64,000 nt of DNA, taken from Aureliella sp. (GTDB lineage Bacteria > Planctomycetota > Planctomycetia > Pirellulales > Pirellulaceae). The DNA lies in contig JBKAHA010000019.1 in NCBI GenBank assembly GCA_046290675.1, forward strand, positions 18,742 to 82,741, in the 5' to 3' direction. A program made the translations under genes and the position numbers. The notes beneath the pieces were generated by a model. It worked only from the letters and a program-made list of their open reading frames with translations, did no database searches and was not told where the DNA came from. Below, piece after piece: positions 16,323 through 56,279 of this stretch (its first letter is position 1; every line of letters starts with the position of its first letter).

Positions 16323-16408
16323 GCGGATGTGGCGGAATTGGCAGACGCGCTAGGTTCAGGTCCTAGTGTCCCTTACCGGACGTGGAGGTTCAAATCCTCT
16401 CATCCGCA
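16323..16408 (+). tRNA. tRNA-Leu(CAG)
   Basis: Acceptor GCGGATG/CATCCGC, anticodon arm CTAGG-TTCAGGT-CCTAG, long variable arm GTCC..GGAC, T loop GGTTCAAATCC. CCA not encoded. Confidence 0.95.
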
Positions 16409-16480
16409 CTGGTTTTTCTTGGGTCAAACGCACCTTCGAAATTTTCAACTTCCCCAACTCGACACCCAGAATTGCATTTT

Positions 16481-32045: not shown

Positions 32046-33065
32046 ATGGCAGTACTTACTCGAGCTCATCAAGAACTCTTTCGTCGAACGCCTGATGAAT
32101 GCTTCGACTCGATGCAAGCTCTACGCTCAAAGTGCTTTAGCGACCGTGAGCAATCACAAGATCAATGGGTGCGAGCCCAGGAAGTCTTATGGACACACGA
32201 CATGACGATGTGCCTGAATGGAGGAAATGAGTACGCCCTCAATGAATGGTCTTTCTCACAGCTCTGCCGCATGGCTGGCGTTAGCAAGGATACGCTGAAT
32301 CGCCTTACTCCCAAGACGGCAAGTTGTGCGATTGAGGAAACACTTCCCGCTTCAGAGAAACCGCTCCAAGTACTCACGACGGATGCACAAGTACGTTCCT
32401 TTCACGGCGTGTCCTATACCCGTTTATGGAACGCAGAGTTGCTGGAACTCGTTGATGAATACGCGAGTGACTTCTCTCCACCTCAGACCGCCATGGATGG
32501 AGTCAGTACCGGATTGTACTGCGGCGAGCAGGACATGTTTGCTTTCCTCATTGATCCTACCGGCTGGGCAGAGATCAATGGCGAGGCCTTTGCTCCTGGC
32601 TTCTTCATATGGAACTCGGAGGTCGGACGTCGCTCACTGGGAATTCAAACGTTCTGGTTCCAGCGTGTCTGTCAGAACCACATCGTTTGGGACGCCACCG
32701 AAGTTGTTGAGTTTAGCCGCAAGCACACAGCGAACGTGCGTGATGGTCTAAACGATATTCGTTGCATCATCGATGGCCTGGTCAAGAGACGCGATGAGCG
32801 CAGAGATGGCTTTGTTGCAACGATGCGTAAGGCTGTTGTTGCCAAGCTTGGTGAAGATGCTGATGAAGTCTTGCAGCAACTATCCAAGCACGGCATCCCG
32901 CGCACGCTGGCAAAGCGAGCCCTGGAGCTTGCAGCTGTTGAAGGTGCTTTCACCATCTTCTCCCTGGTGGATGCCCTCACCCGTCTTAGTCAGGAAGTTC
33001 AGCTTGCTGGCGCTCGCACGGAACTGGATGCCAAGATTGGCCAGCTTCTGAGCTTGGCAGTTTAG
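32046..33065 (+). CDS. DUF932 domain protein (phage/plasmid-like)
   Basis: YTRLWNAELL, GFFIWNSEVGRRSLGIQTFWFQRVCQNHIV, RKHT motifs; AGGAG RBS. Confidence 0.75.
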   Translation: MAVLTRAHQELFRRTPDECFDSMQALRSKCFSDREQSQDQWVRAQEVLWTHDMTMCLNGGNEYALNEWSFSQLCRMAGVSKDTLNRLTPKTASCAIEETLPASEKPLQVLTTDAQVRSFHGVSYTRLWNAELLELVDEYASDFSPPQTAMDGVSTGLYCGEQDMFAFLIDPTGWAEINGEAFAPGFFIWNSEVGRRSLGIQTFWFQRVCQNHIVWDATEVVEFSRKHTANVRDGLNDIRCIIDGLVKRRDERRDGFVATMRKAVVAKLGEDADEVLQQLSKHGIPRTLAKRALELAAVEGAFTIFSLVDALTRLSQEVQLAGARTELDAKIGQLLSLAV

Positions 33066-33103
33066 GAATTCTCGTTTGTTAGTTCTTCAAGAGGAGTCGC
33101 ATC

Positions 33104-33337
33104 ATGTCGACTAAGAAACCTGTTCATGAGATTCGCTTTGGACGCATCAAAGCAGCTATCTGGGAAAACGATACCCAGAACGGCACGCGGCACAACGTAA
33201 CCGTGAGCAGGATCTACAAGGACGGAGACCAATGGAAGGATTCCACATCATTTGGAAGGGATGACCTTCCGCTTGTAGCCAAAGTCGTCGATCAAGCTCA
33301 TAGCTGGATCTACGCGGCAACAGGCTCGAGCGAATAA
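33104..33337 (+). CDS. Small protein, putative ssDNA-binding (paralog)
   Basis: KPVHEIRFGRIKAAIWEN..SFGRDDLP..AHSWIY; AGGAG RBS; clearly similar to 20202..20453. Confidence 0.65.
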   Translation: MSTKKPVHEIRFGRIKAAIWENDTQNGTRHNVTVSRIYKDGDQWKDSTSFGRDDLPLVAKVVDQAHSWIYAATGSSE

Positions 33338-33501
33338 CCAAGGATTCGCTCCACTTTGCCAACTGGATTGAGAGGTCCAGATCACCAAGGTTTTCAGTGG
33401 TTTACTTAGACTGCTGGGGGCCTCCAACACTAGCTTGTGGATTTCAGCGGCAGAATCCGCAACAATGGTCGGGCTCAAACGCAAGAGAACGCAACCTAAC
33501 T

Positions 33502-34620
33502 ATGAACCAAACCGAACCATCACTAGAAACGCTGATAGCACGCCCTCCTTCCGAAAGAGCCGGGGCAATGGCGGCGAATCGCTTTGCGTTTCAGATAAGT
33601 TGGGTACTCTGTCGGATCCTCGATACTCACCGCGGCTCAAGTGAATACGCCTTCATTTTGGATTACTGGGACGACGTGGTTCAGCTGGACAAAGAAAGCG
33701 GACCGAGCGAGGTAAAGTTCTTTCAAATCAAGTCAGCTACCAAAGCCAACTGGACGGTCAATCGCTTGTTGAAGCGTGAGAAGGGTAAGGATGGCCCACT
33801 ACCATCTATTCTGGGAAAGCTTTTTCGACATTGGGTTAGCTTCCCCAATTTTGTCACCTTCGCGAGATTCGTTAGCAATCGACCATTCAATGCAAAACTG
33901 AATGATGGAAACAAGGCTTTCGAGAAAACGGAAGTGGCGCTTAGCGATTGTGACCAGCACGTCTGTGCAAAGATCAAGTCAGCTCTCAAATCTGAGACTG
34001 GCGAAACGGTATCCGACGATCATCTAAAGTCACTGTTCTTCGAGCGTACGGTACTGACTCATGACGACCATGAGAATCAAGCACGCGGGAGACTTGCTAA
34101 CTTTGTCGAGTTGAATCTTGGTCCGGCAGTGCCATCTACACCCGTCTACAAAACCTTAAGGTCAGAGTTGGAACGACGCAATAACTTCGAGAAGCAGCCC
34201 GCTTCGTTCGAAGAAGTACTCAAGCACAAGGCTTTCACTCGCCAAAATATGGTGGCGATAATCGGCCTGGCAGAAAATGACTCGTCAGCTTCTCACGTGG
34301 TGAATTCCATCCAATCCCTACTCATTGCCGACGGTACTCCATCAGCACGAGTTCTCAGGTTGGTGGCATCCGTCCGAAAATGCTTCGCGATGCGCACGGA
34401 TGTCACAAATCGGGTCCATATGGAAATGGTTGATGTTGTGGGAAATTCTGTGGCAAGTGTAATGTCGGACGAGGACGAAAACCCTTCAGTTTCAAAATGC
34501 GTGTCAGCGACCCGTCAGCAAATCAGCACATCGCTGATGACACGCTTTGAGCAGCTTTACGACCCCTACTATTTAGACGGAATGATTTTGTTGGCGATCT
34601 ATGAAAGAACACAACTTTAG
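33502..34620 (+). CDS. lmuA: Lamassu effector LmuA with DUF4297/Cap4-like nuclease domain
   Basis: Probable start 33502. GAMAANRFAFQ..DYWDDVV..FFQIKS nuclease motif; directly upstream of an SMC-like ATPase. Confidence 0.8.
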   Translation: MNQTEPSLETLIARPPSERAGAMAANRFAFQISWVLCRILDTHRGSSEYAFILDYWDDVVQLDKESGPSEVKFFQIKSATKANWTVNRLLKREKGKDGPLPSILGKLFRHWVSFPNFVTFARFVSNRPFNAKLNDGNKAFEKTEVALSDCDQHVCAKIKSALKSETGETVSDDHLKSLFFERTVLTHDDHENQARGRLANFVELNLGPAVPSTPVYKTLRSELERRNNFEKQPASFEEVLKHKAFTRQNMVAIIGLAENDSSASHVVNSIQSLLIADGTPSARVLRLVASVRKCFAMRTDVTNRVHMEMVDVVGNSVASVMSDEDENPSVSKCVSATRQQISTSLMTRFEQLYDPYYLDGMILLAIYERTQL

Positions 34621-34652
34621 ACGGCTCCTACGAGCCCTTCGCACCAGGCATC

Positions 34653-36365
34653 ATGAAACGACTATTATTCGAAAAACTAACACTGCTCTCTCAAACAGAG
34701 AAGAAGGCACGGGTGCTACCGTTCCACGAAAAAGCGACGGTGATAAAAGGCGAGAATGATGTCGGGAAGTCTTCGGTAGTAAAATCGCTTTTCAAAACTT
34801 TTGGCACTCAACCACACAAAGAAACTCCACGTTGGAAGCAGGCTAATGTTCAATCGATAGTTGACTTTACAGTCGATCGCACATCGTACAGCCTGCTTAG
34901 AAGTCGGGATTCCTACGGCTTGTTTGATGGCAACGGCGATATCCTAGAGACATTCACGAGCGTTACCAATGAATTGTCACCAAGACTCAGCAGGATTTTT
35001 AATTTCCACTTAACACTCGATGCTCGAGGGAGCGAATCGCTCGCCACTCCCGCCTTCATGTTCCTTCCTTTCTACGCCGACCAAGATAAGAGCTGGATAT
35101 CTTCGCTGGATGGCTTTGAGCGATTACAGCAGTTCAGGAATTACAGAAAGGACGTCGTCTGGTTTCACACTGGGATCCGTCCGAACGAGTACTACATAGC
35201 GAAAGCCGAACGTGGCGAGGCACTGGCAGAGCAGGAAAGCCTTCAAGGTGAACGTGAATCAGTTCAGCTTGCCGTGAATAAAGTCAACAGCCTGTTTGCC
35301 AAGAATCAGTTTTCTCTAAGTATCGAAGACTTTCAGTCCGAAGTACAAAACTTAGTTGACCGTAGTCGCGAGTTGCTGAATCACGAAAGCAAATTGAAGG
35401 AGCGTATAGTCCAATCTCGCAATCTCCAAATCGCAATCGACAGCCAGATTGCGATCGTAGTGGCGGCAGCACGCGAGCTTGGCGACGACTTCACGTTTGC
35501 CGCAACGGAGCTAGATGATTCGATCGAATGTCCTACATGTGGCGCACACTATGAAAACTCAATTGCAGAGCGGTTTGCCATTGCAGCTGACGAAAATCGA
35601 TGTCGCGAGTTGATAGAGGAGCTCCAAAACGAAAAACGCAGACTACAAGAAGAATACGAAAGTGCCCTTAAGGAATCGGAAGAGGTAGCTGCTGAACGAA
35701 GCCATGTTGACGGCCTTCTAGCTCAGAAGAAAAGCGACGTTACCTTTCAAGAGATACTGCAAAGTGAAGGTAGGCGAGAAGTAAAAGAAGCTCTCCAGAC
35801 GGACATAGATTCGCTTAATTTGCGAATCGGCAAGCTCGATTCAGCGATCGTGGCCGCAGACAAACGAATGAAACAGGCTACAAACACGAAGAGAACAAAA
35901 CGAATCACCGCATTTTTTCGTGAAATGATGTCCGAGTTCCTCGATGAGCTCCGAGTTCGAACGGTCACTCCTGAGCAATATCTCAAAATTGACGCTCGAA
36001 TAAACGAATCGGGCAGCGACGGTCCTCGCGCATTGTTGGCGTATCAATTCGCTATCCTTCACACAATCAACGAGTATTCGACGAGCGTGTTTTGTCCTGT
36101 GATTATCGATTCCCCGAATCAGCAGGATCAAGACGAAGAGAATTTAGGGCGAATACGCGAGTTCATAAGAGACCGACTACCTACAGATGCGCAGCTTATG
36201 CTGTGCTTGGTTGATGATGGAGATGTCGACTACGGCGGAAAGGTCTATGAGTTTAATCGCAAATACTCTGTCCTAACAAAAGCCGACTTCAGTGATGCAA
36301 GTGAGCGCATCGGAATCATGATGGACAAAATGATAGCGGCAAGAGCAAAGTTAAATAATGCATGA
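34653..36365 (+). CDS. lmuB: Lamassu SMC-like ATPase LmuB
   Basis: Walker A GENDVGKSS, coiled coils with CPTC hinge/hook, signature SGSD, IIDSPNQQDQD. Confidence 0.85.
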   Translation: MKRLLFEKLTLLSQTEKKARVLPFHEKATVIKGENDVGKSSVVKSLFKTFGTQPHKETPRWKQANVQSIVDFTVDRTSYSLLRSRDSYGLFDGNGDILETFTSVTNELSPRLSRIFNFHLTLDARGSESLATPAFMFLPFYADQDKSWISSLDGFERLQQFRNYRKDVVWFHTGIRPNEYYIAKAERGEALAEQESLQGERESVQLAVNKVNSLFAKNQFSLSIEDFQSEVQNLVDRSRELLNHESKLKERIVQSRNLQIAIDSQIAIVVAAARELGDDFTFAATELDDSIECPTCGAHYENSIAERFAIAADENRCRELIEELQNEKRRLQEEYESALKESEEVAAERSHVDGLLAQKKSDVTFQEILQSEGRREVKEALQTDIDSLNLRIGKLDSAIVAADKRMKQATNTKRTKRITAFFREMMSEFLDELRVRTVTPEQYLKIDARINESGSDGPRALLAYQFAILHTINEYSTSVFCPVIIDSPNQQDQDEENLGRIREFIRDRLPTDAQLMLCLVDDGDVDYGGKVYEFNRKYSVLTKADFSDASERIGIMMDKMIAARAKLNNA

Positions 36366-36389
36366 CAAAGGACATTATCATGCATTATT
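36354..36389. other. Tyrosine-recombinase core (res-like) site
   Basis: AATAATGCATGACAA-AGGACA-TTATCATGCATTATT: 15-bp inverted arms (1 mismatch) around a 6-bp asymmetric spacer, about 95 bp upstream of a recombinase gene. Confidence 0.65.
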
Positions 36390-36483
36390 GTTCCAGAGTT
36401 GAAAAACTACTGAAAACCCATTCTTGAGTTGCCGTATCCGTAAAGCAACCACTGGCCAACTCGGGGATCTACACTGATGCACG

Positions 36484-37479
36484 ATGGCTGACTTACAAAG
36501 CAAAGCAACCGCATGGCAGACCAATATTGATTTACTCACCAAAGAGGTGGCGGTTGTTGAGACGCCTAAACTGGTCCACGAGGCCGGTCCAGCGGCGCAG
36601 TTTGCCTGGGAAGAGTTCTTCTATGGGCAGATACGTAACGAACACACGCGTAAGGCCTATGGCTTCGCCGTGCGGCGTTTCCTGGAACATTGTGACCGTT
36701 TGGGCCGCGAACTCGCGAAGATCACGCCTCGAGACGTCGCAACGTATTTGGACGGACTCGACTATGCCGCTTCCACAAAGAAGCTGCACCTGTCCGGTCT
36801 CAGGCACTTCTTCGACATCCTGGTCACTCGGCACGCTATTGTTCTCAATCCTGCCTCGTCGGTTCGCAGTGAGCGTTTACACGTAGTCGAAGGAAAAACT
36901 CCGGAGATAACAGTGGTACAGGCCCGCCAATTGGTGCAGAGCATTGATACGTCGACTGTGATCGGTCTACGCGACCGCGCGATCATCGGTATCTTGATTT
37001 ACACCGCAGCGCGAGTTGGGGCAGTCTCGCGTCTTAGGCGTAGAGACTTCTACGACCTGGGCGAACAGCACTGCCTGCGGTTTAGCGAAAAAGGAGCGAA
37101 GTCTCGAGAAATACCGGTGCGTCACGATCTTCGCGGTTTTCTCCTGGAGTATCTACGTACCAGCGGACTCGACTATGCGGACAAGCTTTCGCCGCTCTTC
37201 CGTACAACAATCCGTCGTACCAAACAGCTTACACAGAATCGCATGACTCCCGGTGACATGGGCCGCATGGTGAAGCGTCGCATGAGAGAAGCTGGGCTGC
37301 CTGACCGACTATCGCCCCATTCTTTTCGAGTAACAACGATCACTGACCTTTTAAGCCAGGGGGTTCCGCTGGAAGATGTGCAGAATTTGGCTGGTCACGC
37401 GGATCCGCGAACTACACGTCTCTACGACCGCCGCCAGCGAAAGATTACGCGAAACATCGTCGAGAGAATATCGATTTAG
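36484..37479 (+). CDS. Tyrosine recombinase / plasmid-type resolvase (XerD-like)
   Basis: IRNEHTRKAY, RDRAII..TAARVG, HSFR, LAGH..TTRLY; no arm-binding domain. Confidence 0.9.
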   Translation: MADLQSKATAWQTNIDLLTKEVAVVETPKLVHEAGPAAQFAWEEFFYGQIRNEHTRKAYGFAVRRFLEHCDRLGRELAKITPRDVATYLDGLDYAASTKKLHLSGLRHFFDILVTRHAIVLNPASSVRSERLHVVEGKTPEITVVQARQLVQSIDTSTVIGLRDRAIIGILIYTAARVGAVSRLRRRDFYDLGEQHCLRFSEKGAKSREIPVRHDLRGFLLEYLRTSGLDYADKLSPLFRTTIRRTKQLTQNRMTPGDMGRMVKRRMREAGLPDRLSPHSFRVTTITDLLSQGVPLEDVQNLAGHADPRTTRLYDRRQRKITRNIVERISI

Positions 37480-37564: not shown

Positions 37565-40500
37565 ATGTCGACCGTTCCTAACCTGCCTACCCCTGGCCAA
37601 ATCGCCCGAGTTCGGCAACGGACTTACTTGGTTGAGCAAGTCGTCAAATCACGTCGTGTTACCGACAGCACCCTTGTGCGGCTCTCGTGCGTCGACGACG
37701 ACAACCAGGGGCAGCCGCTTGAGGTTCTGTGGGAGAATGAACTCGACCCGCAGGTAGTTACGGCCGAGGATTGGGAAGCAATTGCATCCAAGGGCTTCGA
37801 TGACCAAAGAACGTTTGCTGCTTATCTGAATTCGCTGAAGTGGAATTGTGTAACTTCGACAGATCCAAAGCTATTCCAATCACCGTTTCGGGCTGGCATC
37901 CGGCTCGATGCTTACCAGCTAGAACCGCTTCGCAAGGCGTTGCTCCTGCCGCGAGTGAATCTATTTATCGCCGACGATGTAGGCCTTGGTAAGACTATTG
38001 AGGCTGGCCTCATTGCGCGAGAACTGTTGCTCCGAAAGAAGGTGCGGGACATTATCGTTTCGTGTCCGCCGTCCATGTTGCTGCAATGGAAGGAAGAGCT
38101 CGAGGCACGCTTTGGGCTTACCTTTGAGATACTCGACAAGGACTACATGACTCGTGTGCGTAGAGAACGTGGCTTTAGCATCAATCCCTGGAGCACGCAT
38201 TCGCGTTTTCTGGTCTCACATAGGCTTTTGATTGACGAGAACTACGCGGCACCCTTGCGGGATCATCTCAGCACTTTTAGACCGGGTTCCCTGTTCATTT
38301 TGGATGAAGCACACCATGCTGCTCCAGCAAGCGGGCAAAAGTATGCCATCGACTCAAAGATTACGCGGGCAGTGCGGGAACTTGCTCCAAGATTCGAGCA
38401 TAGACTCTTCCTATCAGCGACACCTCACAACGGACACTCAAACAGCTTTTCCGCCTTGCTTGAGATCCTTGACCCTCAGCGGTTTTGTCGGGGAGTGTCG
38501 GTAACTCCTAAACACCTGGAAGCTGTTGTAGTTCGACGTCTCAAGGAGGATATCCGTGAAATTCAAGGTGGATTCCCCAAGCGAAACGTCGTGCAGATCA
38601 CGATCGATGGATTACCGAAGACAGCACCTGAACTCGAGCTGTCGCGATTGTTAGACGAGTATCGCGTAACTAGGGAAGAGCGTCTCAAAGGAGAATCCAA
38701 AAGAAAGCAAGCCGCAGCGGGGCTGTTGATTACTGGTTTGCAGCAACGTTTACTTTCTTCAATTGAAGCCTTCGCTCGAACCTTGAAAGTGCATCGGAAA
38801 ACGGTGCAGCGGCAATGGGAAAAGTCGCAAGAGGGCAAGAGAGAAACGGAAGAGAAATCACTTCCAACACTCGATCTCCTCAACAAATCGGTTGACAACG
38901 ATGATGAGCGAGCGAACCTCGAGGAGGAACAACTTAGCGCGATAGAAGATGCACAATTCGAGAGTGCCTCAGCCGCGACCATGGGGCCACTGGAAGACTT
39001 GTCGGCCCAAGAGTTATTCAGCCGAGAACAACAGCTTCTTGCCGAGATGACGGATATCGCTGAGCAGGCACGTGGCCAGGTGGATGCTCGAACGAAGGAA
39101 CTCATTGAGTGGATTCGAAAGAACATGTGCCCCAAGCTCGGCGAAACGGGTGCTGAGTGGAATGATACCCGCGTTCTGATTTTCACGGAGTATGACGATA
39201 CCAAACGCTATCTACGTGAACAGTTGGAAGCAGCAATTGCTAAGAGTGACCGTGCAGAACAACGGATCGAAATCTTCCATGGTCCGACCCCACCGCAGAA
39301 GCGTGAAGAGATCAAGCAAGCCTTTAATGCTGACCCCTCTCAACATCCAGTTCGCATCTTGATTGCAACTGATGCTGCACGTGAGGGCCTAAACCTGCAA
39401 GCTCACTGTTCGAATCTTTTCCATTTCGATGTCCCTTGGAATCCCAGCCGAATGGAGCAACGCAATGGTCGGATTGACCGTAAGCTACAGCCTCGAGACG
39501 AGGTCTTTTGTCACTACTTTGTCTACAAGCAGCGTCCGGAAGATCGTATTCTTCAAGTACTCGTACGTAAGACGCAAACAATCAAGGAGGAGCTTGGAAG
39601 CTTAGCCCAGGTCATTGATGCCAAGCTTGCCAAGTCGATGTCTGGCGGAATTCGCCACAGATCGATCGCTGAGCTCGAGACTCAGTTGGATTCGACGGAC
39701 ATCGACGAGAAACACCGCAACGCAATCGAGCAAGAGTTAGAGGCAACTCGCAAACGTCAGCAGGATTTACGTGAGCAGGTCGACAGGCTGAGATCCTTAC
39801 TGGAGCGTTCGAAAGAGACTATCGGGCTTTCCGAGGATCACTTTCGATCTGCTATTTCATGTTCACTCGAGTTGCTTGGCCAAGATCGCCTGGAAGAGTC
39901 CGGTCATATTGGCAAGAACGTTGATACTTTTGCTTTTCCTGCCCTCGATGAAAGGTCTGGAGCCGACCCAACCTGGGCTGAGACGATGGACACTCTGCGT
40001 GCCCCGCGTAAGCGCGATCAGAAGCTTTGGGAGTGGCGCAAGAGTTCGCCCATTCGTGAAGTTGTCTTCAATGATCCTGGGGTGGTAAGCGACGACGTTG
40101 TTCACTTGCACTTAGAACAGCGTGTTGTGCAGCGTTTACTCGGACGCTTCTCCGCTCAGGGATTCGTGCATCACGATCTGTCCCGATCATGTTTTGCGCA
40201 ATCGAAAGATGCCATTCCACGAGTCATCTTGTTAGGACGTTTGTGTCTCTACGGTATTGGGGCAGCTCGATTACACGAAGAGCTGATCCCCGTCACAGCT
40301 CGTTGGACGGACCCCAAGATTCGCAAGGACAAGCTCTCACCCTATGCGAAAGACACGGAAGCAAAAACGCTCTCGCTGTTAGAACAAGCCTTACTCGACT
40401 CCCAGGGCGTCTACCTAGATGGCAGAGTCACCGAGCAGTTGAGAGAGGCCGCTGCGCAAGACATCAGCGAACTGCTTCCTTACCTAGAATCTCGCGGTCA

Positions 40501-40831
40501 GGAATATGCCGAGGATGCTGAGTCCAAACTAATCTCTCGGGGGCAAGCTGAGTCCAAGGCTATGGCCGAGATTCTCGGCACACAGCGAAAGCATATCGCC
40601 GAAACAGTTAAGAAGTTTGATAAGACAGATCGGAATCAGCTCAAGTTTGAGTTTGCTCAAGAAGAGGAACTCGCGCAGCTTGACGCAAACAAGCGATATT
40701 GGGCCAAGCGGCTCGAGGAACTAAGAGAGGAGTTGAAATCGGAACCCAAACGTATCGAGGAGCTTTATTCAGTGCAGGCTCGGCGGATTGAACCTGTGGG
40801 ACTTGTCTACCTCTGGCCAGTAACTGGATAA
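37565..40831 (+). CDS. drmD: DISARM SNF2-like helicase DrmD
   Basis: IADDVGLGKT, DEAHH, ATDAAREGLNLQ, EQRNGRIDR; first gene of the drmD-MI-A-B-C order. Confidence 0.88.
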   Translation: MSTVPNLPTPGQIARVRQRTYLVEQVVKSRRVTDSTLVRLSCVDDDNQGQPLEVLWENELDPQVVTAEDWEAIASKGFDDQRTFAAYLNSLKWNCVTSTDPKLFQSPFRAGIRLDAYQLEPLRKALLLPRVNLFIADDVGLGKTIEAGLIARELLLRKKVRDIIVSCPPSMLLQWKEELEARFGLTFEILDKDYMTRVRRERGFSINPWSTHSRFLVSHRLLIDENYAAPLRDHLSTFRPGSLFILDEAHHAAPASGQKYAIDSKITRAVRELAPRFEHRLFLSATPHNGHSNSFSALLEILDPQRFCRGVSVTPKHLEAVVVRRLKEDIREIQGGFPKRNVVQITIDGLPKTAPELELSRLLDEYRVTREERLKGESKRKQAAAGLLITGLQQRLLSSIEAFARTLKVHRKTVQRQWEKSQEGKRETEEKSLPTLDLLNKSVDNDDERANLEEEQLSAIEDAQFESASAATMGPLEDLSAQELFSREQQLLAEMTDIAEQARGQVDARTKELIEWIRKNMCPKLGETGAEWNDTRVLIFTEYDDTKRYLREQLEAAIAKSDRAEQRIEIFHGPTPPQKREEIKQAFNADPSQHPVRILIATDAAREGLNLQAHCSNLFHFDVPWNPSRMEQRNGRIDRKLQPRDEVFCHYFVYKQRPEDRILQVLVRKTQTIKEELGSLAQVIDAKLAKSMSGGIRHRSIAELETQLDSTDIDEKHRNAIEQELEATRKRQQDLREQVDRLRSLLERSKETIGLSEDHFRSAISCSLELLGQDRLEESGHIGKNVDTFAFPALDERSGADPTWAETMDTLRAPRKRDQKLWEWRKSSPIREVVFNDPGVVSDDVVHLHLEQRVVQRLLGRFSAQGFVHHDLSRSCFAQSKDAIPRVILLGRLCLYGIGAARLHEELIPVTARWTDPKIRKDKLSPYAKDTEAKTLSLLEQALLDSQGVYLDGRVTEQLREAAAQDISELLPYLESRGQEYAEDAESKLISRGQAESKAMAEILGTQRKHIAETVKKFDKTDRNQLKFEFAQEEELAQLDANKRYWAKRLEELREELKSEPKRIEELYSVQARRIEPVGLVYLWPVTG

Positions 40832-40837
40832 CGAACC

Positions 40838-43800
40838 ATGGCAAAGTCACCTGAGGAATATGCACACCTGGAATGGCTGGGTTATGTCCAGCCAACAGGT
40901 CTTGTTGTGTCGATCCCCGCACTTCTTGAGGCTCAGTGCTACGTCGACAAGAACATCATGGCTGAGCACACCCAATTCCTGGCTTCCTTACGTCGTGACG
41001 AGGATGACCAGGTCGTCGCTGAAGTGCGAGATCTTGCTGAGTTCACGCAGAGCGTGCTTGGTTGGAATGATTCGGACTTGGAGGTGGTCCCTCAAGCTCC
41101 TACCGGTGACATGGCTCAGCTTGAGGTCGTTTTGCCTCAGTACAACGAAACCCTACGTCCAACGCACGTAGTTCCAGCTTACAAGCCAAATGAAGGCGAA
41201 CCCAAATGGATGATGCTGGTTCAGGAATTGGCGACTGGGACCGATTTCGACGTGGCAACTGAGGCGGATAGTAGTCGACATTGGAGCGCGGCACCTCATG
41301 CCAAGTTCGAGCGATTGCTCCGTGAAAGTGAAGTGCCGATCGGTCTGCTATACAACGGATCTCAGTTTCGTTTGGTCTACGCACCTCGTGGTGAAACCAG
41401 TGGCTATGCAACATTCAATGTAGACGAAATGGGCCAGGTAGCAGGACGCCCCATGTTTGCCGCGTTCTACATGCTGCTCTGCGTCGATCGGTTGTTCACA
41501 CTGGCGCCTGAGCAATGTCTGCCAGCAATCTTGGAGAATAGCCGCAAGTATCAGAGCAACGTTTCAACGAAATTGGCTGAGCAGGTTACTTCTGCGTTGT
41601 TTGAGTTGCTTCGTGGATTTCAAGCAGCTGATGACCATCGCAGCGGCGAATTGCTGCGTGACATCCTCAAGAACAACCCTCAGCATGTTTACAACGGCTT
41701 GCTTACCGTATTGATGCGTCTCGTCTTCGTGCTGTATGCCGAGGACCGCGGGGTCCTTTCGACTGATTCAGTTTATGCCAATCACTATTCCGTGTCTGGC
41801 TTGTTTCAGCGCCTTCGTAGCGACGCTGGCCGCTTCCCAGACACTATGGATCAGCGGTTCGGTGCGTGGTCTCAACTCCTGACCTTGTTTCGGTTGGTAT
41901 TCCAAGGTGCCAAGCATAACGAGTTTCAGATTCCTCCTCGGAAAGGATATCTTTTCGATCCAGATCGCTATCCGTTTCTTGAGGGGCGCTACGATGACGG
42001 AGACGTCGACGTCTCGTCACCAGAGGAGCAGTGTTCGGTGATTCAGATTCCTCAGATTAGCGATGGCGTTATCTATCGTGTGCTCGAGGATCTACTGATT
42101 CTAGATGGCGAGCGTCTCAGCTACCGAACACTTGATGTTGAACAGATTGGCAGTGTTTATGAAGCGGTTATGGGGTTTCAGCTAGAAGTTGCCACTGGGA
42201 AGTCAATCGCCATCAAGCCGGTCAAATCGCACGGCGCACCAGCGACAGTCAATCTCGAGAGTTTACTCGAGGCTAAGCCTGCAAACCGCTCTAAACTTCT
42301 CAAAGAATGGACTGATCAGAAGCTAGGGGCGAGTGACGCCAAGTCGTTGAAGGACGCAAGTAGTATTGAAGAGATTGTCGAAGCCCTTGGCAAGAAGATC
42401 GCGCGCCATGTAACTCCGAGCATTGTTCCATCTGGAAGCATGGTGTTCCAACCATCTGAAGAGCGCAGGCGAAGTGGCTCGCATTACACACCACGTTCTT
42501 TAACCGAACCAATAGTTAGGACTACGCTCGAACCAATTCTCAGGCAATTGTGCGATCCAGATTCAGACTTACCGAGCGTTTACAAACCCTCGAGTCAGGA
42601 TAAGGACCGCTACACAAAGGGTGAAATTGCTGCTCGTGTTCGCCAGTCTGAGAAACATATCGAGTACGCCACGGCTGCGAGAGAGAAAGGTGTACCGCAC
42701 CCTAACCAAATTCTCGATCTAAAAATCTGCGACCCTGCCATGGGCAGTGGTGCGTTCTTGGTTGAGACTTGTCGACAACTTGGAGATGAATTGATTCTGG
42801 CGTGGGCGGCTCACGACATGCAACCATCGGATATTCCGCCCGATGAGGATGAGGTGCTGTACGCGCGTCGCCTTGTGGCCCAGCGTTGCCTGTACGGAGT
42901 CGACAAAAACGTAATGGCCGTAGACCTCGCCAAGCTTTCGCTCTGGCTTGTAACGCTGGCCCAGGACCACGCATTTACGTTCCTAGATCACGCTCTTCGT
43001 CATGGGGATTCGCTGGTTGGTCTTACGCGTCGCCAGATAATTGGCTTTCATTGGGAACCCAAGAAGCAAAAGAAATTTGGCGAAGACTACATCCAAAAAC
43101 GGCTCGACCGAGCCACCGAAGCCCGCGCGAAAATCTTAAATGCCCGCGAGGATGTCCCTTACAAAGATCAGGAACAGCGATTGGCGGTGGCGGATGAGGC
43201 GTTGGATTTGATCCGCATCCTTGGCGATGCGTGCGTCAGTTGCTTCTTTGCCGAGTCGAAAAAGAAAGCCCGCGAAGAAGAAGCGGATCGCGTGTATGGT
43301 CTGGCCAGTTCTTATCTGGAAAGTCAGAAGCAGCCGCAAGTCGATCATGCGAGTCGAACCGGTCTGCAGGAAGCCGCCGCTCTCCTTCGAGACAGTTCGC
43401 AGGAGCATCCCGTTCCCGCGTTTCACTGGGAGATTGAGTTTCCCGAAGTTTTTTCGCGTGAGAATGGCGGGTTCGATGCGTTTGTGGGGAATCCGCCGTT
43501 CTTGGGAGGGAAGAGAATAAGCGGTGCCTTTGGAAGTAGCTATCGCGATTGGCTGCCAGCTATTCACGCGGAAACGAACAGCAATTCAGATTTAGTTGCA
43601 CACTTTTTTAGGCGCGCTTTTAATCTACTCAGAAAACAAGGCACATTAGGGCTAATCGGAACAAACACGATCTCCCAAGGTGACACGAGGGCGACAGGGC
43701 TTCGCTGGATTTGTAACCACGGCGGACAAATTTATTGGGCGAAGCGACGCGGGGCCTGGCCAGGAGTTGCAGCAGTAGTCGTTAGCTTCGTGCACATTTT

Positions 43801-45019
43801 CAAAGGTCAGCTCGACGGACTCCGAAGTCTCGATGGGAAGCAAGTTGAGCGTATCACGGCATTTCTTTATCACGCGGGCGGCAATGATGATCCGTTCGTT
43901 TTGCAATCAAACGAAGGACTCAGCTACCAAGGATGCATCGTTCTAGGCATGGGTTTTACGTTCGACTCAGAACCTAACGATGTGTCAGGAACGCTCGAAG
44001 AAATGCACGAATTGATTGCAGCAAATCCAAGAAACCAAGACGTAATTTTTCCATATATTGGCGGCGAAGAACTTCTAAGGAGTCCCATTCAATCACCTCG
44101 CAGATATGTAATCAATTTTGGAGGGCGGACTCTTGAAGAATGTGAAGCTGAGTTTCCTGATCTCCTGGAGATCGTTCGCGAACGCGTTAAACCAGCAAGA
44201 GATGAACTCAAGCGCGACGTATATCGCAATAAGTGGTGGATGTTTGCGGAAAGGCAAACCGCACTTTGTGATGGACTTGCGACGTTAGACAGAGCGTTGA
44301 TGCACTCGTTTACGTCATCGCACTTGGCATTCGCGTTTATTCCCGCCGATACGGTATTTGCTGGCCCACACTGCGTCTTTCTCCTAGATGGCTATGGCTA
44401 CTTTTGCACGATGCAAAGTCGAATACATGAGCGATGGGCTAGATTCACAAGCTCGACTTTGAAGGACGACCTTAGTTACAAAATCACGGATTGCTTTGAG
44501 ACATTTCCCTTTCCCTTGCAAGTCGAGACGTTGGATGATGCAGGGCAAGCGTATTACGACCTGCGTGCGCAAGTAATGATCTCAAACGATGAAGGTCTGA
44601 CGAAGACCTACAACCGTTTCCATTCTCCGGACGAGCGTGATGAGGGCATCTTGGAGCTTCGTCGTCTTCACGGTTTGATGGATGGAGCGGTGCTGCGGGC
44701 CTACGGCTGGGACGATCTGGCAGAATCTGCCGCAGCCGACGATTTTTGCGAGTTCCTGCTCGACTACGAAGAGGAAGAAGACGACGACGCGCCCGCCTCG
44801 ACCAAAAAGAAATCCAAAAAGAAGAAGCCCTGGCGTTATCGCTGGCCCGACGACTTCCGCGACGAAGTCCTCGCCCGCCTCCTCGAACTCAACGAACAAC
44901 GCCACAAAGAAGAACAAATCGCTGGCAAGCTTGCGGACGGTGAGTCAAAGAAGAAGACGCCAGCCCGCAACAAGACATCCCCCCCGTCAAACCCAGGCCA
45001 GACTTCATTCCTCGAATAG
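40838..45019 (+). CDS. drmMI: DISARM N6-adenine methyltransferase DrmMI
   Basis: GSHYTP, DPAMGSGAF (SAM motif), GNPPF (catalytic), followed by a TRD-like region. Confidence 0.88.
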   Translation: MAKSPEEYAHLEWLGYVQPTGLVVSIPALLEAQCYVDKNIMAEHTQFLASLRRDEDDQVVAEVRDLAEFTQSVLGWNDSDLEVVPQAPTGDMAQLEVVLPQYNETLRPTHVVPAYKPNEGEPKWMMLVQELATGTDFDVATEADSSRHWSAAPHAKFERLLRESEVPIGLLYNGSQFRLVYAPRGETSGYATFNVDEMGQVAGRPMFAAFYMLLCVDRLFTLAPEQCLPAILENSRKYQSNVSTKLAEQVTSALFELLRGFQAADDHRSGELLRDILKNNPQHVYNGLLTVLMRLVFVLYAEDRGVLSTDSVYANHYSVSGLFQRLRSDAGRFPDTMDQRFGAWSQLLTLFRLVFQGAKHNEFQIPPRKGYLFDPDRYPFLEGRYDDGDVDVSSPEEQCSVIQIPQISDGVIYRVLEDLLILDGERLSYRTLDVEQIGSVYEAVMGFQLEVATGKSIAIKPVKSHGAPATVNLESLLEAKPANRSKLLKEWTDQKLGASDAKSLKDASSIEEIVEALGKKIARHVTPSIVPSGSMVFQPSEERRRSGSHYTPRSLTEPIVRTTLEPILRQLCDPDSDLPSVYKPSSQDKDRYTKGEIAARVRQSEKHIEYATAAREKGVPHPNQILDLKICDPAMGSGAFLVETCRQLGDELILAWAAHDMQPSDIPPDEDEVLYARRLVAQRCLYGVDKNVMAVDLAKLSLWLVTLAQDHAFTFLDHALRHGDSLVGLTRRQIIGFHWEPKKQKKFGEDYIQKRLDRATEARAKILNAREDVPYKDQEQRLAVADEALDLIRILGDACVSCFFAESKKKAREEEADRVYGLASSYLESQKQPQVDHASRTGLQEAAALLRDSSQEHPVPAFHWEIEFPEVFSRENGGFDAFVGNPPFLGGKRISGAFGSSYRDWLPAIHAETNSNSDLVAHFFRRAFNLLRKQGTLGLIGTNTISQGDTRATGLRWICNHGGQIYWAKRRGAWPGVAAVVVSFVHIFKGQLDGLRSLDGKQVERITAFLYHAGGNDDPFVLQSNEGLSYQGCIVLGMGFTFDSEPNDVSGTLEEMHELIAANPRNQDVIFPYIGGEELLRSPIQSPRRYVINFGGRTLEECEAEFPDLLEIVRERVKPARDELKRDVYRNKWWMFAERQTALCDGLATLDRALMHSFTSSHLAFAFIPADTVFAGPHCVFLLDGYGYFCTMQSRIHERWARFTSSTLKDDLSYKITDCFETFPFPLQVETLDDAGQAYYDLRAQVMISNDEGLTKTYNRFHSPDERDEGILELRRLHGLMDGAVLRAYGWDDLAESAAADDFCEFLLDYEEEEDDDAPASTKKKSKKKKPWRYRWPDDFRDEVLARLLELNEQRHKEEQIAGKLADGESKKKTPARNKTSPPSNPGQTSFLE

Positions 45020-45093
45020 TGACCGAAGGTGTCACGCAACCTGCTACCCTAGAAGCTTCGCCCAAATTCTCCATATCAAAATGAGGTGCAACG

Positions 45094-45612
45094 ATGAACT
45101 CGTTTGGCAAACTTGCTCTTGTCATGTCGACAGTTGCGCCCGTACTCGGAGCTTTTGGAATCAACGCCTTCTCGAATGGAGCGACCAGTGCCGGTTGGTG
45201 GTATGTCGGCATCGCACTAGGAATGATCGTGATTACGGCTCTCATCCTGTTCGAATGCCACCGACGCATAGAGACAGAAACGCTCAAGATTGAAACGACT
45301 AAGTCAGTAGACAAAGAGTCTCTGTCTTTTCTGCTCGTGTATCTTCTTCCGCTTCTTGCCAAAGACGTCAATCAGTTTACTGGAGATACCTGGACCGCCT
45401 TTTACGTATTCGGCGTCATCGCCTTGGTTGTTGCGCATGGAAATCTAGTCACCTTCAACCCAGTTTTTGCTCTCTTTCGCCTGCACTTCTACGAAGTAAA
45501 GACCGTGGGTGGGATGACCTGTACTTTTGTGTCAAAGCAAATCATAAAGAAACAGTCCGGCGAGTATCGCGCCATCGAAGTCTACCCGTTCTTCTACATG
45601 GAGGCTAAGTAG
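45094..45612 (+). CDS. kwaA: Kiwa membrane component KwaA-like
   Basis: Four TM helices; ESLSFLLVYLLP and NLVTFNPVFALFRLHFYEV resemble KwaA motifs; 2 nt upstream of a KwaB-like gene. Confidence 0.75.
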   Translation: MNSFGKLALVMSTVAPVLGAFGINAFSNGATSAGWWYVGIALGMIVITALILFECHRRIETETLKIETTKSVDKESLSFLLVYLLPLLAKDVNQFTGDTWTAFYVFGVIALVVAHGNLVTFNPVFALFRLHFYEVKTVGGMTCTFVSKQIIKKQSGEYRAIEVYPFFYMEAK

Positions 45613-45614
45613 CC

Positions 45615-46523
45615 ATGTCAAACGAATTGACATTTTTTGCCGTCACGCGAGTCGGTAGTGGACCATCAGAGTTACAGCGCATTCATGTCGAGCGTTCGGT
45701 CCAAGAACAGCTTTCAGAGTTGTTTGACGAACAGTCGGAAGAATTCACTGGTGTTGACGTGGAACCAATCCAGTTTAGCCCGACATACCGTATTGATCGT
45801 TCGGACAACGAAGTATTTGCAGTTTCTGAATTCGAGATCCCAGAGTTCTTGAGCGAAGCCTTGGAAGCCCATGAAAGCATCGAAGACTTACAGAATCCGT
45901 TTACGCCACAAGCCCCACGAGTGAAAGCAATTGTCGGTGTCGACGCTGAATCAGGGGCTTTCTTTTTTCAGTATTTTGAGCGAAGACGAATCCTTGATTC
46001 TCGCCGTTTATTTCTCTTTAGGAACGATCGTTTCAGTGCAGTTGAAGAGCCCGCAATCACAGTAGATGACAAGCTCGTAGCAACGATCATTGATGGCGAG
46101 TTGCGCTTTAAATCGTTCTATCACGTTCGACAGTTCTTAGACCTCTCCATTCTCTTTGAGGATGCAACAGATGAGTCGATTCACAAGTTTTTGGAACATC
46201 CAAAACTGCATGTAGAGGATATTGAAGCCCTTATTCCTCGACTTTCCACTCGAATGAGAAAACGCTTCGCGGTTGTACTCGCTACGGGCATTCTCGATGA
46301 CCAGAATATTACGCCCCAGCTAATTCAGACTCGAGCAAAGAAATACACGGGACTTGAGAACTTACGACTCAAAGGACCTGCAAGCTCGAGAAAGATCGTC
46401 CTACCATCCGAACTCGCGAAGCTCGAGAAACTTCTTCGGTTTGTTTGTGAAGAACTATATGTAGGCGATCTAACCGGTAGCGAACGAATTACTAACTCCT
46501 CAAGAGTCATAACAACTGCTTGA
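45615..46523 (+). CDS. kwaB: Kiwa KwaB-like (DUF4868) protein
   Basis: FFFQYF, ITVDDKLVA, FKSFYHVRQFLDL..F..AT..I..F pattern of DUF4868; paired with a 4-TM gene. Confidence 0.78.
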   Translation: MSNELTFFAVTRVGSGPSELQRIHVERSVQEQLSELFDEQSEEFTGVDVEPIQFSPTYRIDRSDNEVFAVSEFEIPEFLSEALEAHESIEDLQNPFTPQAPRVKAIVGVDAESGAFFFQYFERRRILDSRRLFLFRNDRFSAVEEPAITVDDKLVATIIDGELRFKSFYHVRQFLDLSILFEDATDESIHKFLEHPKLHVEDIEALIPRLSTRMRKRFAVVLATGILDDQNITPQLIQTRAKKYTGLENLRLKGPASSRKIVLPSELAKLEKLLRFVCEELYVGDLTGSERITNSSRVITTA

Positions 46524-46582
46524 ATCAATTAGACAGCGATGGGGAATTCTGGCACTCTTCCTAGAAAAATGGCGAGGAATTC

Positions 46583-49500
46583 ATGAAACCTGTTGATGTC
46601 AGGCACCATCTCCAGCAAGCAATACAGCTCGACCTCGTGGGGCCAACTGAGACGTTGGGGGATCTTCGGGAGACCCTCAATCAAATGCCGTCACGGTGGT
46701 ATCTCACCGGCTTTTTGGTGCCGACTGAAGCAGATGAGGCCCAACGTGTCGATCCAACGAGCAACGATGAGCTTGACCAGGCGGCTGAACCAGCTGGCCT
46801 CGATGACGATAGTACTCCAGAACCTGTAGCGGCCAGAAGATCCTATCTTCCCAGCAGCATGGGACTCAGCGTCTTGGTCCCTAAGAATGCCACAGAGTTA
46901 AATATATCAGTTGATTACGGAGAGTACCTCCTTCAAGAACAAGATGAAGGATACTCCGGCCCAGACCTATGGAAGCGTGTGCCGCACAGACAAGAGTTCA
47001 AACTTGATTTTGGTAGTTCAGCTCCAAATCGAGGGAGGCTTCCGGTTCCCAACAGCAGAGGGCTAGAGATTGACTGGTCCATTCGCGAAGTACCCGACTC
47101 GGGTATCGAAGGTGGTTTACCCTCGGGAACTCGAAGTCTTTCGGTATTCATCGTCAATCATCGAACTCCTGCTGGCGATAAACACGCCGACGAAGCATCA
47201 GTGTTTCAGGTGCAGCTTGAGCTAAAATGCAACCAAGGATTCGTCGCGAGGCCGAACCTTCGGAGCCTCGAGAGCGACGACTGGGACGAATGCGTTGCAG
47301 ACCTCCAGTATCAAGACTCGTTCGAGTTTTCTGTCGGGCATGGCGTATCCACGGAAGCTGATACAGAGGGCAACGTCTGTAATGTAGTGCGAACTTGCTG
47401 GCTTCCTAGTGCAGAAGTCGAGAAAGTCGCCCCCGCGCCAATTCCCGATGTTGAATTGCGTATGGAGGAGTTGGCCGGTCTCAAAGACGGGAAAGCCGCA
47501 CAAGAAAAGCTCGGCAACTTTGTTGAATGCTACAAGTCTTGGATCAAGAAACAGATAGACAATGTCCCTTCGTCACCTGCTAAACGAAGAGAAACTGGAG
47601 AAGTTCTCTTGCATAACGCCTCGAGGGCGGCAAAACGAATACAGGAAGGAATTGATTTACTTTCGACGCCTGACTGCTTAGACGCTTTCCGATTAGCCAA
47701 CCGAGCGATGGCAGATCAAGGGCGACGAAGACTCGCACTGCAACTCAATAAGCCAGCCGCTGAAATCGTTCCTGCTTGGCGCCCGTTCCAGTTAGCATTT
47801 CTTCTGATGAATTTAAAGGGAATTGCTGAGCCTGAAGGCGATGATCGCCAGGTAGTGGACCTCCTATTCTTTCCAACAGGTGGTGGTAAGACCGAAGCCT
47901 ACCTTGGTTTGGCAGCTTTTACTCTGGTGCTGCGACGACTTCGAAACCCCGGTATCGCATCGGCAGGTTTGAGCGTGTTGATGCGTTATACGTTGCGGCT
48001 ACTGACACTCGACCAGCTCGGTCGTGCCGCTGCCTTGATATGTGCTCTCGAGCTTCTTCGTCAAAGCGACGTTGATAAGCTCGGCGAGTGGCCATTTGAA
48101 ATCGGCTTATGGGTTGGCCGAGCCGCAACGCCAAATCGCATGGGACGGAAAGGCGAATCGGATGGCGAATCTGCTCGGCGAAAAACAATCGCGTTCCAGA
48201 ATGACAGCAAGAATAAACCCTCGCCTATTCCGCTAGAAGAATGTCCTTGGTGTGGAGAGAAGTTTCGGGCTACATCCTTTAAGTTAACACCCAATACAGA
48301 CAACCCAACTGATCTCCGTGTCACCTGTGCTAACCGAGACTGCGACTTCTCGAGAGGTAATGACTTACCCATTCTTGCTGTTGATGAGCCAATCTATCGA
48401 CGGCTACCTTGCTTCTTGATTGCCACTGTCGATAAATTTGCGGCCATGCCTTGGACCGGTGAAGTTGGCGGCTTCTTCGGTCGGGTCGACCGCTATGACG
48501 CTGATGGTTTTTATGGGCCTTGCGAGAAGAACGTTGGTCGTCCCCTACCTGAGCCACGACTGAATCCACCGGACTTGGTGATTCAAGACGAATTGCACCT
48601 GATATCGGGACCACTGGGCACAATGGTCGGCCTGTATGAGACCGCCTTGGACGAATTGTCGACTGTTATGCGAGATAACAAAGAGATACGTCCAAAGATC
48701 ATTGCTTCCACGGCTACGGTTCGCCGTGCAGAAAGTCAGATTCGGGCACTATTCAACCGACGTCTGGTTGACGTATTCCCTCCCCCAGGCCCTGATCGTC
48801 GAGATTCATTCTTCGCTGAAACTCATAGCACCGAACGAAGCAACGCTCGGCAGTATCTGGGTATCGCGGCCCAAGGGCGCTCGCCAAAAGTCATTATGCT
48901 GCGAGTCTACTTGGCTCTCTTGGCTGCAGCCCAACGCGTTTATGTTGAAAACGGTGGTAAGAAAAACAAAAGTAATCCAGCTGACCCGTATATGACGCTG
49001 CTCGGCTATTTCAACAGTTTACGAGAACTTGGTGGTGCAAGAAGGCTGATTGAAGACGAAGTTCGCACGCAGCTTATTTCTCGGGGTGCTCGAAAAAGAG
49101 TTGGTGAAGACAAAGGTGTCTTTCGCGACCGAAAGATAACGTATGAACCTGTTGAACTGACCAGCCGAGTCTCAACGGACAAAGTGTCTGAGGCTAAGCG
49201 ACTCCTCGAGCAAGCGTTCTTTGAAAAGGACCACGTCGATGTGGCTATCGCCACCAATATGATTTCTGTCGGTCTCGACATCACGCGACTTGGCCTGATG
49301 GTTTGCTTCGGCCAACCCAAGACCAGTGCCGAATACATTCAGGCAACGAGCCGTGTTGGACGAGATGACAAGCGGCCTGGGTTAGTGGTGACAATCCTAA
49401 ATATTCATCGGCCAAGAGACCGGTCACACTACGAACGTTTCGCTGCCTTCCACGAGACCTTCTATCGCTCTGTTGAGGCCACAAGCGTCACGCCATTCTC

Positions 49501-49975
49501 ACCTCGCGCCTTGGACCGTGGACTTGCCGGCACACTTGTCGCTTTGGTTCGCCAAGGGCATCTACCTATGACGCAACCACGCGGGGCAACTGAGATTCTC
49601 AACGAAATGCCGCGATTAGACACATTCGTCGAGCAGATTTCGGATCGTGCCCTGGAGACACACTATGACAGTTCATCTGCTGAAGCGGAACACCTTAAGA
49701 ACGTTGTGCGAGAGCGTGCTATCGATTTGCTCGACAACTGGAATACGATTGCAAAGGAATTGCATGACAATGGTGGCGCACTACAGTATCAGGCTGAAAT
49801 CGGGGGTGCCCAAAGACTACTCTACGAGTTCCTCAATCCAGAGCTAAAGGAACTGCCCGCTCGGCATAAAAAGTTCCGTGCCAATCGTTCGATGCGAGAC
49901 GTCGAGCCAAGCGTCAATCTCTGGCTTAAGACAATTGACGGTGTTGAGCTTGACCCTGAGGAGGAGGACGCGTGA
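46583..49975 (+). CDS. drmA: DISARM helicase DrmA
   Basis: FFPTGGGKTEAY, IQDELHLI, ATNMISVGLDI, YIQATSRVGR. Confidence 0.9.
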   Translation: MKPVDVRHHLQQAIQLDLVGPTETLGDLRETLNQMPSRWYLTGFLVPTEADEAQRVDPTSNDELDQAAEPAGLDDDSTPEPVAARRSYLPSSMGLSVLVPKNATELNISVDYGEYLLQEQDEGYSGPDLWKRVPHRQEFKLDFGSSAPNRGRLPVPNSRGLEIDWSIREVPDSGIEGGLPSGTRSLSVFIVNHRTPAGDKHADEASVFQVQLELKCNQGFVARPNLRSLESDDWDECVADLQYQDSFEFSVGHGVSTEADTEGNVCNVVRTCWLPSAEVEKVAPAPIPDVELRMEELAGLKDGKAAQEKLGNFVECYKSWIKKQIDNVPSSPAKRRETGEVLLHNASRAAKRIQEGIDLLSTPDCLDAFRLANRAMADQGRRRLALQLNKPAAEIVPAWRPFQLAFLLMNLKGIAEPEGDDRQVVDLLFFPTGGGKTEAYLGLAAFTLVLRRLRNPGIASAGLSVLMRYTLRLLTLDQLGRAAALICALELLRQSDVDKLGEWPFEIGLWVGRAATPNRMGRKGESDGESARRKTIAFQNDSKNKPSPIPLEECPWCGEKFRATSFKLTPNTDNPTDLRVTCANRDCDFSRGNDLPILAVDEPIYRRLPCFLIATVDKFAAMPWTGEVGGFFGRVDRYDADGFYGPCEKNVGRPLPEPRLNPPDLVIQDELHLISGPLGTMVGLYETALDELSTVMRDNKEIRPKIIASTATVRRAESQIRALFNRRLVDVFPPPGPDRRDSFFAETHSTERSNARQYLGIAAQGRSPKVIMLRVYLALLAAAQRVYVENGGKKNKSNPADPYMTLLGYFNSLRELGGARRLIEDEVRTQLISRGARKRVGEDKGVFRDRKITYEPVELTSRVSTDKVSEAKRLLEQAFFEKDHVDVAIATNMISVGLDITRLGLMVCFGQPKTSAEYIQATSRVGRDDKRPGLVVTILNIHRPRDRSHYERFAAFHETFYRSVEATSVTPFSPRALDRGLAGTLVALVRQGHLPMTQPRGATEILNEMPRLDTFVEQISDRALETHYDSSSAEAEHLKNVVRERAIDLLDNWNTIAKELHDNGGALQYQAEIGGAQRLLYEFLNPELKELPARHKKFRANRSMRDVEPSVNLWLKTIDGVELDPEEEDA

Positions 49976-51795: not shown

Positions 51796-51797
51796 CC

Positions 51798-55910: not shown

Positions 55911-56279
55911 TGTTCTCTCCGCACGTTCGATTAGGTGACCAATCGGATTGCCAAGCAGGACATGACATAGGGTTAGGCAAACAAGAATCACCCCTAAGCC
56001 GACAAGCCAGGCGTAGTCAGTAAAGCCGATTAAAAACTCTTTACGATGTGTCTCATCCAATGCCCATGATGACCCGATTCTTGCGACCAACTCGAGTGCT
56101 GCGACATATGCCTGTAGGAAGGGCACCGCAAAGCAGGTCGCTAATCAGATATAAGCCCACCAGTGCCATGGCCATGGGATCTCCTCGAATGTCTCCCAAT
56201 TGCGAGCGATAATTCGTGCGAAAGCATAAAGCAGAATACAGCAGAGGAATAGCTGAAGCAGGAAGCTCGAATAAGCCAT
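55890..56279 (-). pseudogene. Small membrane-protein gene interrupted by one in-frame TGA
   Basis: ATG overlaps the rep stop (TGATG). Frame reads MAYSSFLL..WAYI*LATCFAVPF..KKS; TGA at 56145-56147. Confidence 0.55.

Follow-up and report, generated by a model that had tools for sequence, protein, structure and literature searches.

The palindrome and the recombinase gene

The 64,000-nucleotide stretch of Aureliella sp. DNA analysed here (contig JBKAHA010000019.1 of assembly GCA_046290675.1, positions 18,742 to 82,741; the whole stretch is referred to as the window) covers most of an island delimited by tRNA-Leu repeats, within which a Xer-like tyrosine recombinase gene (36484-37479) is preceded by a 36-bp palindrome at 36354-36389. 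Our subject is this palindrome, its association with the recombinase, and its probable function as a recombination site between two groups of defence genes. Coordinates are those of the window and features lie on its forward strand unless otherwise noted. LmuA and LmuB are encoded on the left. On the right, the recombinase is accompanied by DrmD and DrmMI and then by ORFs whose matches would fit DrmA, DrmB and DrmC; these neighbours agree with the Lamassu and recombinase-DISARM blocks named in the first-pass annotation of this DNA.

The palindrome consists of a left arm, AATAATGCATGACAA (36354-36368), a 6-bp asymmetric spacer, AGGACA (36369-36374), which is the presumed crossover region, and a right arm, TTATCATGCATTATT (36375-36389), which is identified by reading of the sequence, by the pattern scan, and in the table of sites described below. 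The 15-bp arms are inverted with a single C/T mismatch, and the left arm also encodes the final three codons of lmuB and its TGA stop codon (36363-36365), both as previously annotated. Two inverted arms around an asymmetric spacer within the 6-8 bp range constitute the form of a tyrosine recombinase core site. The arm pattern occurs twice in the 64-kb window, these being the two arms themselves, where 0.08 occurrences are expected. Moreover, it is the sole palindrome in the window with 15-bp arms, a gap of 4-10 bp, and no more than one mismatch, and the mean number satisfying these criteria in 30 Markov simulations was 0.07 per window. Between the site and the recombinase start is a leader (36390-36483) that is partly conserved in alignments of the closer relatives.

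The recombinase is 331 aa in length and contains the Pfam Phage_integrase domain (PF00589) and a SAM-like domain. Its catalytic set R-K-H-R-H-Y is intact, with the R, K, H-x-x-R, H and Y residues lining up with those of the XerD and XerA chains, and the nearest solved structures are XerA and XerD, of which XerA is the best match. The scores against NCBIfam models are nonetheless well below the cut-offs, with 110.9 bits against 329.6 for XerD, 99.7 bits against 220 for XerA, and an XerC match that is also far under its cut-off, and by these scores the protein does not qualify as a chromosomal Xer recombinase. Homologues are frequent in related genomes, often in multiple copies.

Conservation, copy number and probable role of the site

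Relatives were searched for the site using the core GAYAA-AGGACR-TTRTC. Among 16 Pirellulales loci, each with 20 kb of context, the core is present 60-450 bp upstream of the recombinase gene and in the same orientation in 11, and two more contain a variant-spacer or inverted site. It was also found in 12 of 18 further contigs with a recombinase homologue, and in 65 of 73 evaluable metagenomic loci with recombinases 59-82% identical (62 in the same orientation), compared to 1/38 control segments. The first-pass annotation had proposed that this is a lox/dif-like site of the neighbouring recombinase, a proposal that would have been undermined by absence of the palindrome upstream of recombinase homologues, and which is borne out by its conservation there in all three sets of loci.

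Tabulation of 27 sites shows no variation at arm positions 1, 2 and 4 and very little in the spacer AGGACR, which is nearly invariant across the 65 metagenomic loci as well. The arms covary symmetrically between loci, as in CCCGATGACAA/TTGTCATCGG, such that the site is both co-inherited with the recombinase (including in 8/8 plasmids, see below) and changes symmetrically. Where the recombinases are more distant (37-44% identical), the site is likewise located 5' of the gene or of its small operon, but the spacer points the other way with respect to the gene, unlike in the close branch, plasmids included. The spacer is also flipped relative to the same flanking segment in loci L065 and L093 as compared to L099. 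Conservative recombination at the site cannot produce a flip of the spacer relative to its flanks or to the gene.

Among species-representative genomes there are 98 perfect matches to a 24-nt form of the site, distributed across at least five phyla and including members of the Acidobacteriota, Alphaproteobacteria, Planctomycetota, Verrucomicrobiota, Chloroflexota and others. There are no matches in viral contigs, and a phage origin of the site was rejected on this basis. Neighbour clustering over 80 loci did not identify a conserved partner protein, returning the recombinase only, and the small open reading frames (ORFs) upstream of the plasmid homologues have no informative Pfam match. Analysis of mosaicism in the flanks revealed homology on the recombinase side and a few local oddities, and nothing more. 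A search of the available literature library with the site sequence found no paper containing it.

The 99.9%-complete genome from which the window derives has two full sites, one beside each of two recombinase copies, with different spacers, AGGACA in the window and AAGACG on contig 4. No partner site was found in the window, the island or the whole genome by scanning with consensus arms or for generic palindromes, and an inversion switch for DISARM or Lamassu was rejected for want of an inverted partner. Recombinase homologues are encoded by 136 PLSDB plasmids, nearly always one each, on plasmids as small as 8 kb. The site adjoins the recombinase operon in all eight complete plasmids examined, from Planctomycetota and Alpha- and Betaproteobacteria; seven contain a single site and the Paludisphaera plasmid PALBO2 has two. 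The plasmid copies are often beside parA, repA and toxin-antitoxin genes.

Judging from these sequences, we conclude with a probability of about 0.85 that the palindrome is the core site at which the adjacent Xer-like tyrosine recombinase acts. Its role is somewhat less secure, although on balance we favour resolution of dimers or cointegrates of a circular form of the element to monomers, both because one site per replicon beside a recombinase, as seen in this genome and on seven of the eight plasmids, is the layout of dimer-resolution systems, and because the island carries another integrase along with att repeats. A multimer-resolution site for the episomal form had been suggested in the first-pass annotation; resolution is indeed the role that fits best, given the single sites on elements and plasmids and the par, rep and toxin-antitoxin neighbours on the plasmids, while the existence of an episomal form is less firmly placed, as noted below.

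From the anatomy, co-conservation, copy number and context of the site, which are direct observations, we infer binding, cleavage, resolution and autoregulation. Two recombinase monomers would bind to the symmetric arms, in which the inner bases A.AA / TT.T are invariant, and strand exchange would occur across the asymmetric AGGACA, which would set the polarity of the site. With exactly one site per element, recombination would be possible only when two copies meet, either in a dimer of the excised circle or in a cointegrate with a sister element, and the predicted outcome is monomers, as for Cre/loxP, ResD/rfsF or XerS/difSL. Recombinase bound to the site, just upstream of the leader, may also dampen transcription of its own gene.

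Several observations weigh against a role in resolution. The spacer is retained across recombinases that are merely ~40% identical, and five genomes with orphan sites have no recombinase homologue at E≤1e-30, mostly with one site each; a resolution site purely private to its element predicts neither of these. In one plasmid and a few contigs, the recombinase gene is flanked by two directly oriented sites with the same spacer. Furthermore, although the window encodes ParA and ParB, the site is 21 kb away from parAB without a compact maintenance block, whereas on plasmids the maintenance genes often adjoin the site. Finally, a putative rep ORF (56279-57565, reverse strand) has no tblastn match at E≤1e-10 in 72,556 PLSDB plasmids, and episomal replication of the island is no more than plausible.

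The orphan and paired sites have features of their own. Approximately 33 of 80 genomic site matches have no recombinase within the 8 kb examined. Perfect 24-nt orphans are present at L048, L081, L085, L097, L115, L117 and other loci, mostly singly in a genome, and the genes beside orphan sites look cargo-like, with products that include a beta-lactamase fold, an ArsB-like protein, RES and DUF4238 proteins, and peptidases. One orphan is in a low-GC island at mid-replichore of a complete chromosome, and is hence not dif; position and GC skew led to the rejection of a chromosomal dif, the site in the window being inside the tRNA-Leu island. Paired direct sites are at 19765 and 22347 in PALBO2 (L147), at 909 and 2665 in L108, and at 3177 and 5869 in L124. 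Within these pairs the spacers are equal and the arms differ, and the enclosed 1.7-2.7 kb, which includes the recombinase gene, looks like an excisable recombinase cassette. Contig 21 of genome G341, which has no recombinase homologue at E≤1e-30, contains two same-spacer sites at 146546 and 160611, inverted and 14 kb apart.

A different explanation of these sites is that the palindrome is a secondary attachment or fusion site that joins the element to replicons or chromosomes with a like site, with resolution as the mere reverse reaction. Fusion would account for identical 24-mers in chromosomes without the recombinase, including that in the mid-replichore island, and for the direct pairs that flank the recombinase in PALBO2, L108 and L124. 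We regard it as improbable, however, as neither a partner nor an orphan site exists in the genome under study, the island is already equipped with a tRNA integrase and att repeats, and most plasmids carry one site; in addition, most orphan-bearing genomes are metagenome-assembled and may have lost plasmid contigs bearing the recombinase. It is more improbable still that the palindrome is solely a regulatory hairpin or operator, either a terminator or insulator after lmuB or a repressor site at the recombinase promoter, with no strand exchange. It is located directly 3' of lmuB, the 36-bp RNA has a predicted fold of -14.5 kcal/mol (z = -3.3), and a weak sigma-70-like match (9/12 positions in a consensus scan, and a lead only) overlaps the site at 36362-36391. 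Nonetheless, the stem is AT-rich without a T tract and was not scored as a terminator in the consensus scan; action solely as a terminator or operator was among the outcomes that the first-pass annotation had considered fatal to a recombination site. The palindrome is also conserved where the upstream genes run in the opposite direction (as in genome G018) and on plasmids with unrelated neighbours, it retains an asymmetric spacer that is needless for a loop or a dimeric operator, and it travels with a catalytically intact recombinase. No Rfam family matches the site, and with these properties an intrinsic terminator or a known RNA was rejected.

Defence genes on either side of the unit

The segment 36353-37480, containing the site and the recombinase, is exactly the block that can still be aligned among relatives, and homology with related elements begins at 36353-36356. 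The genes to the left of the site differ from element to element among those that carry the recombinase. In the window this left slot is occupied by Lamassu cargo (33397-36365), consisting of lmuA (33397-34620), with a Cap4 nuclease domain, and lmuB (34653-36365; PADLOC LmuB, E = 4e-197). It is preceded by a conserved left backbone (32046-33425) containing a 339-aa ORF with a weak DUF932 match, a 77-aa ORF (33104-33337) and ~90 bp of conserved sequence, the end of which, near GGCCTC at ~33425, is the left boundary of the slot. The first in-frame start codon of lmuA, a GTG at 33397, precedes this boundary, with an alternative TTG at 33436; a lmuA start within the conserved backbone implies that the cargo is tightly embedded at both ends.

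To the right of the recombinase is a class 1 DISARM system with two small embedded ORFs (37565-52589), for which PADLOC identifies DrmD and DrmMI; the drmA, drmB and drmC calls derive from Pfam only, by matches to Helicase_C, MZB and PLDc_2 in three downstream ORFs. A weak KwaA match is located within the DISARM operon at 45094-45612 (NCBIfam, 40.7 bits against a cut-off of 100).

Related elements have other systems in these positions. In G018, the recombinase is 88% identical and DISARM is also present downstream, but Hachimoji, on the opposite strand, takes the place of Lamassu in the left slot. Other cargo of the left slot includes DRT UG21, a DpdF-like helicase, PDC-S06 with an ATPase, a second Hachimoji, and unknown genes. 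The paralogous locus on contig 4 of the same genome (L029) has an 'empty' slot, with ~60 bp between the region of the 77-aa ORF and the site. An extra half-site, ATCATGCAT, is present in this locus at ~9255-9265, ~50 bp upstream of the full site, and could be a remnant or serve as an accessory motif for binding. The content on the right varies as well, and includes DISARM, type I restriction-modification, IetAS, DruE (Druantia-like) and DpdE/F-like genes; with such different downstream neighbours, a specific link between the recombinase and DISARM was rejected.

In three comparisons (the window with G018, the window with G022, and two contigs of G001 with each other), the variable DNA stops 0-3 bp from the outer edge of the arm. 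The first-pass annotation had placed the site at the exact junction of the two blocks, and these edges, together with the alignment, agree that it is the right-hand boundary of a variable defence slot. The LmuB C-terminus is ~5 residues longer than those of its relatives and stops within the arm, so that the lmuB overlap simply follows from how tight the junction is; overlap of the stop codon and the arm is an incidental accident of the junction, and is absent from G018. The unit 36354-37479 represents a conserved anchor in the backbone, and its two flanks form a hotspot of defence-system replacement. Exchange of cargo would most economically occur by recombination in the flanking conserved sequences, in which case variable DNA would end where constraint begins, at the outer arm edge.

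An alternative, and one that the first-pass annotation had raised by analogy to pdif modules, is that the site is itself the crossover point through which cassettes are captured, with defence circles that carry a compatible site joining the resident site in the manner of integron attI or pdif, and cargo piling up on its left. The precise edges in the three comparisons and the 'empty' paralogue fit this description, a spacer common to several phyla would make sites compatible with one another, and the orphans beside cargo-like genes and the few loci with paired same-spacer direct sites could be explained by it too. Capture should leave another site at the opposite end of the cargo, however, and there is none in the window, in the genome, or within at most 8 kb upstream in ~100 loci. 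At the left boundary of the slot, backbone homology simply ends, without a site-like motif, the closest Lamassu pairs (59-62% identical) are in other contexts without a site, the cargo orientation is not fixed, as Hachimoji is reversed in G018, and the region to the right of the recombinase is equally variable without any site. Homologous exchange also places the boundary at the first constrained base. We thus consider capture unlikely, and the absence of a second site bounding the cargo, the siteless closest Lamassu and the varying orientation lead us to set that part of the earlier annotation aside. It is similarly doubtful that the site, with its near-universal AGGACR spacer, is a shared exchange point where members of this recombinase family, working in cis or in trans, fuse plasmids, islands and site-tagged cargo with one another and re-sort them across phyla. 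If it were, the system would be a dedicated-recombinase analogue of pdif modules that loads defence genes beside the site, and the orphan sites beside cargo-like genes would be its footprints.

Three more specific possibilities were rejected in the course of these comparisons. Travel of the site with Lamassu does not agree with the lack of a site in the nearest metagenomic pairs, and LmuB relatives are present in just 1/300 genomes of the order (at 41% identity). Modules of the pdif/dif kind would each be flanked by sites, with several on a replicon, and neither the window nor the genome nor the related loci contain a second one. An integron would have an attC at the end of each cassette and cassettes of uniform orientation; the match to the integron integrase model reaches 66.7 where 265 is the cut-off, no repeated site is present at the cargo ends, and the cargo is reversed in G018.

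Relationship to known systems and the island setting

So far as sequence comparison can establish, the layout matches that of single-recombinase Xer modules and of plasmid resolution sites of the Cre/loxP type. Cre/loxP of the phage-plasmid P1 and ResD/rfsF of F resolve plasmid dimers by a tyrosine recombinase. As in the Aureliella element, these are single sites with symmetric arms and an asymmetric spacer, beside the recombinase gene and one per replicon with partition functions. They differ in having an 8-bp spacer rather than 6 bp, there is no detectable specific sequence relationship, and the host element described here is integrated, with another integrase of its own. In TnpI/IRS of Tn4430 and TnpS-TnpT/rst of Tn4651, the resolution site closely precedes the gene for a tyrosine recombinase. 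The core inverted repeat immediately 5' of the gene is shared with our site, and with this location autoregulation is plausible, although our site has no transposase context and no clear accessory repeats, the one extra half-site being that in L029.

Among the single-recombinase Xer modules are XerS/difSL, XerH/difH and archaeal XerA/dif (PMC5357621, PMC2731167, PMC2958812). These share with the present pair a single Xer-like recombinase, ~11-bp arms around a 6-bp spacer, and a site that is genetically linked to the gene; the inner arm bases ATAA/TTAT resemble dif, and XerA is the best structural match. In contrast, the present site is on mobile elements and plasmids, away from the chromosome terminus, its arms are near-perfectly symmetric over 13-15 bp, and its recombinase is far under the equivalog cut-offs. 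In Acinetobacter plasmids, pdif/dif modules are flanked by sites that are numerous on each plasmid and are acted on by the host XerC/XerD (PMC6449649, PMC13141974). The similarity is in dif-like 11-6-11 sites that border accessory-gene modules on plasmids, although the elements described here each have a single site and their own dedicated recombinase. Hotspots of defence cargo are familiar from integrative and conjugative elements such as SXT. They also occur in islands such as pipolins (PMC11551731). In all of these, slots of interchangeable defence systems are framed by conserved backbone genes, but in the elements described here the anchor between two slots is a recombinase with its site.

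The recombinase/site pair spans Planctomycetota, Acidobacteriota, Proteobacteria, Verrucomicrobiota and Chloroflexota, with a recognisable signature of 28-36 bp. In phyla that have been little studied, the 1.1-kb unit offers a convenient marker for plasmid-like islands. Its practical value extends to locating defence hotspots. In the Pirellulales the unit lies between two defence slots with fast turnover, such that uncharacterised genes in the slots are candidates for new defence functions. The genes just upstream of the site in L032, L037, L038 and L039 have no PADLOC match, and are candidate new defence genes, as these positions hold defence systems in sister elements. If the site is compatible between elements, it would provide a route for cargo movement between plasmids and islands.

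The island itself begins on its attL side at a tRNA-Leu gene (16323-16409), and is ~48 kb long, with the site ~20 kb inside it. A ~70-bp direct repeat of the 3' part of tRNA-Leu is present at 16355-16425 and again, as attR, at ~64155-64225, just past the end of the window. After the tRNA-Leu is the island's own integrase (16564-17775), a second integrase in addition to the recombinase described here, and this is followed by a Fic gene, a methylase-like gene, and a relaxase/coupling-protein module.

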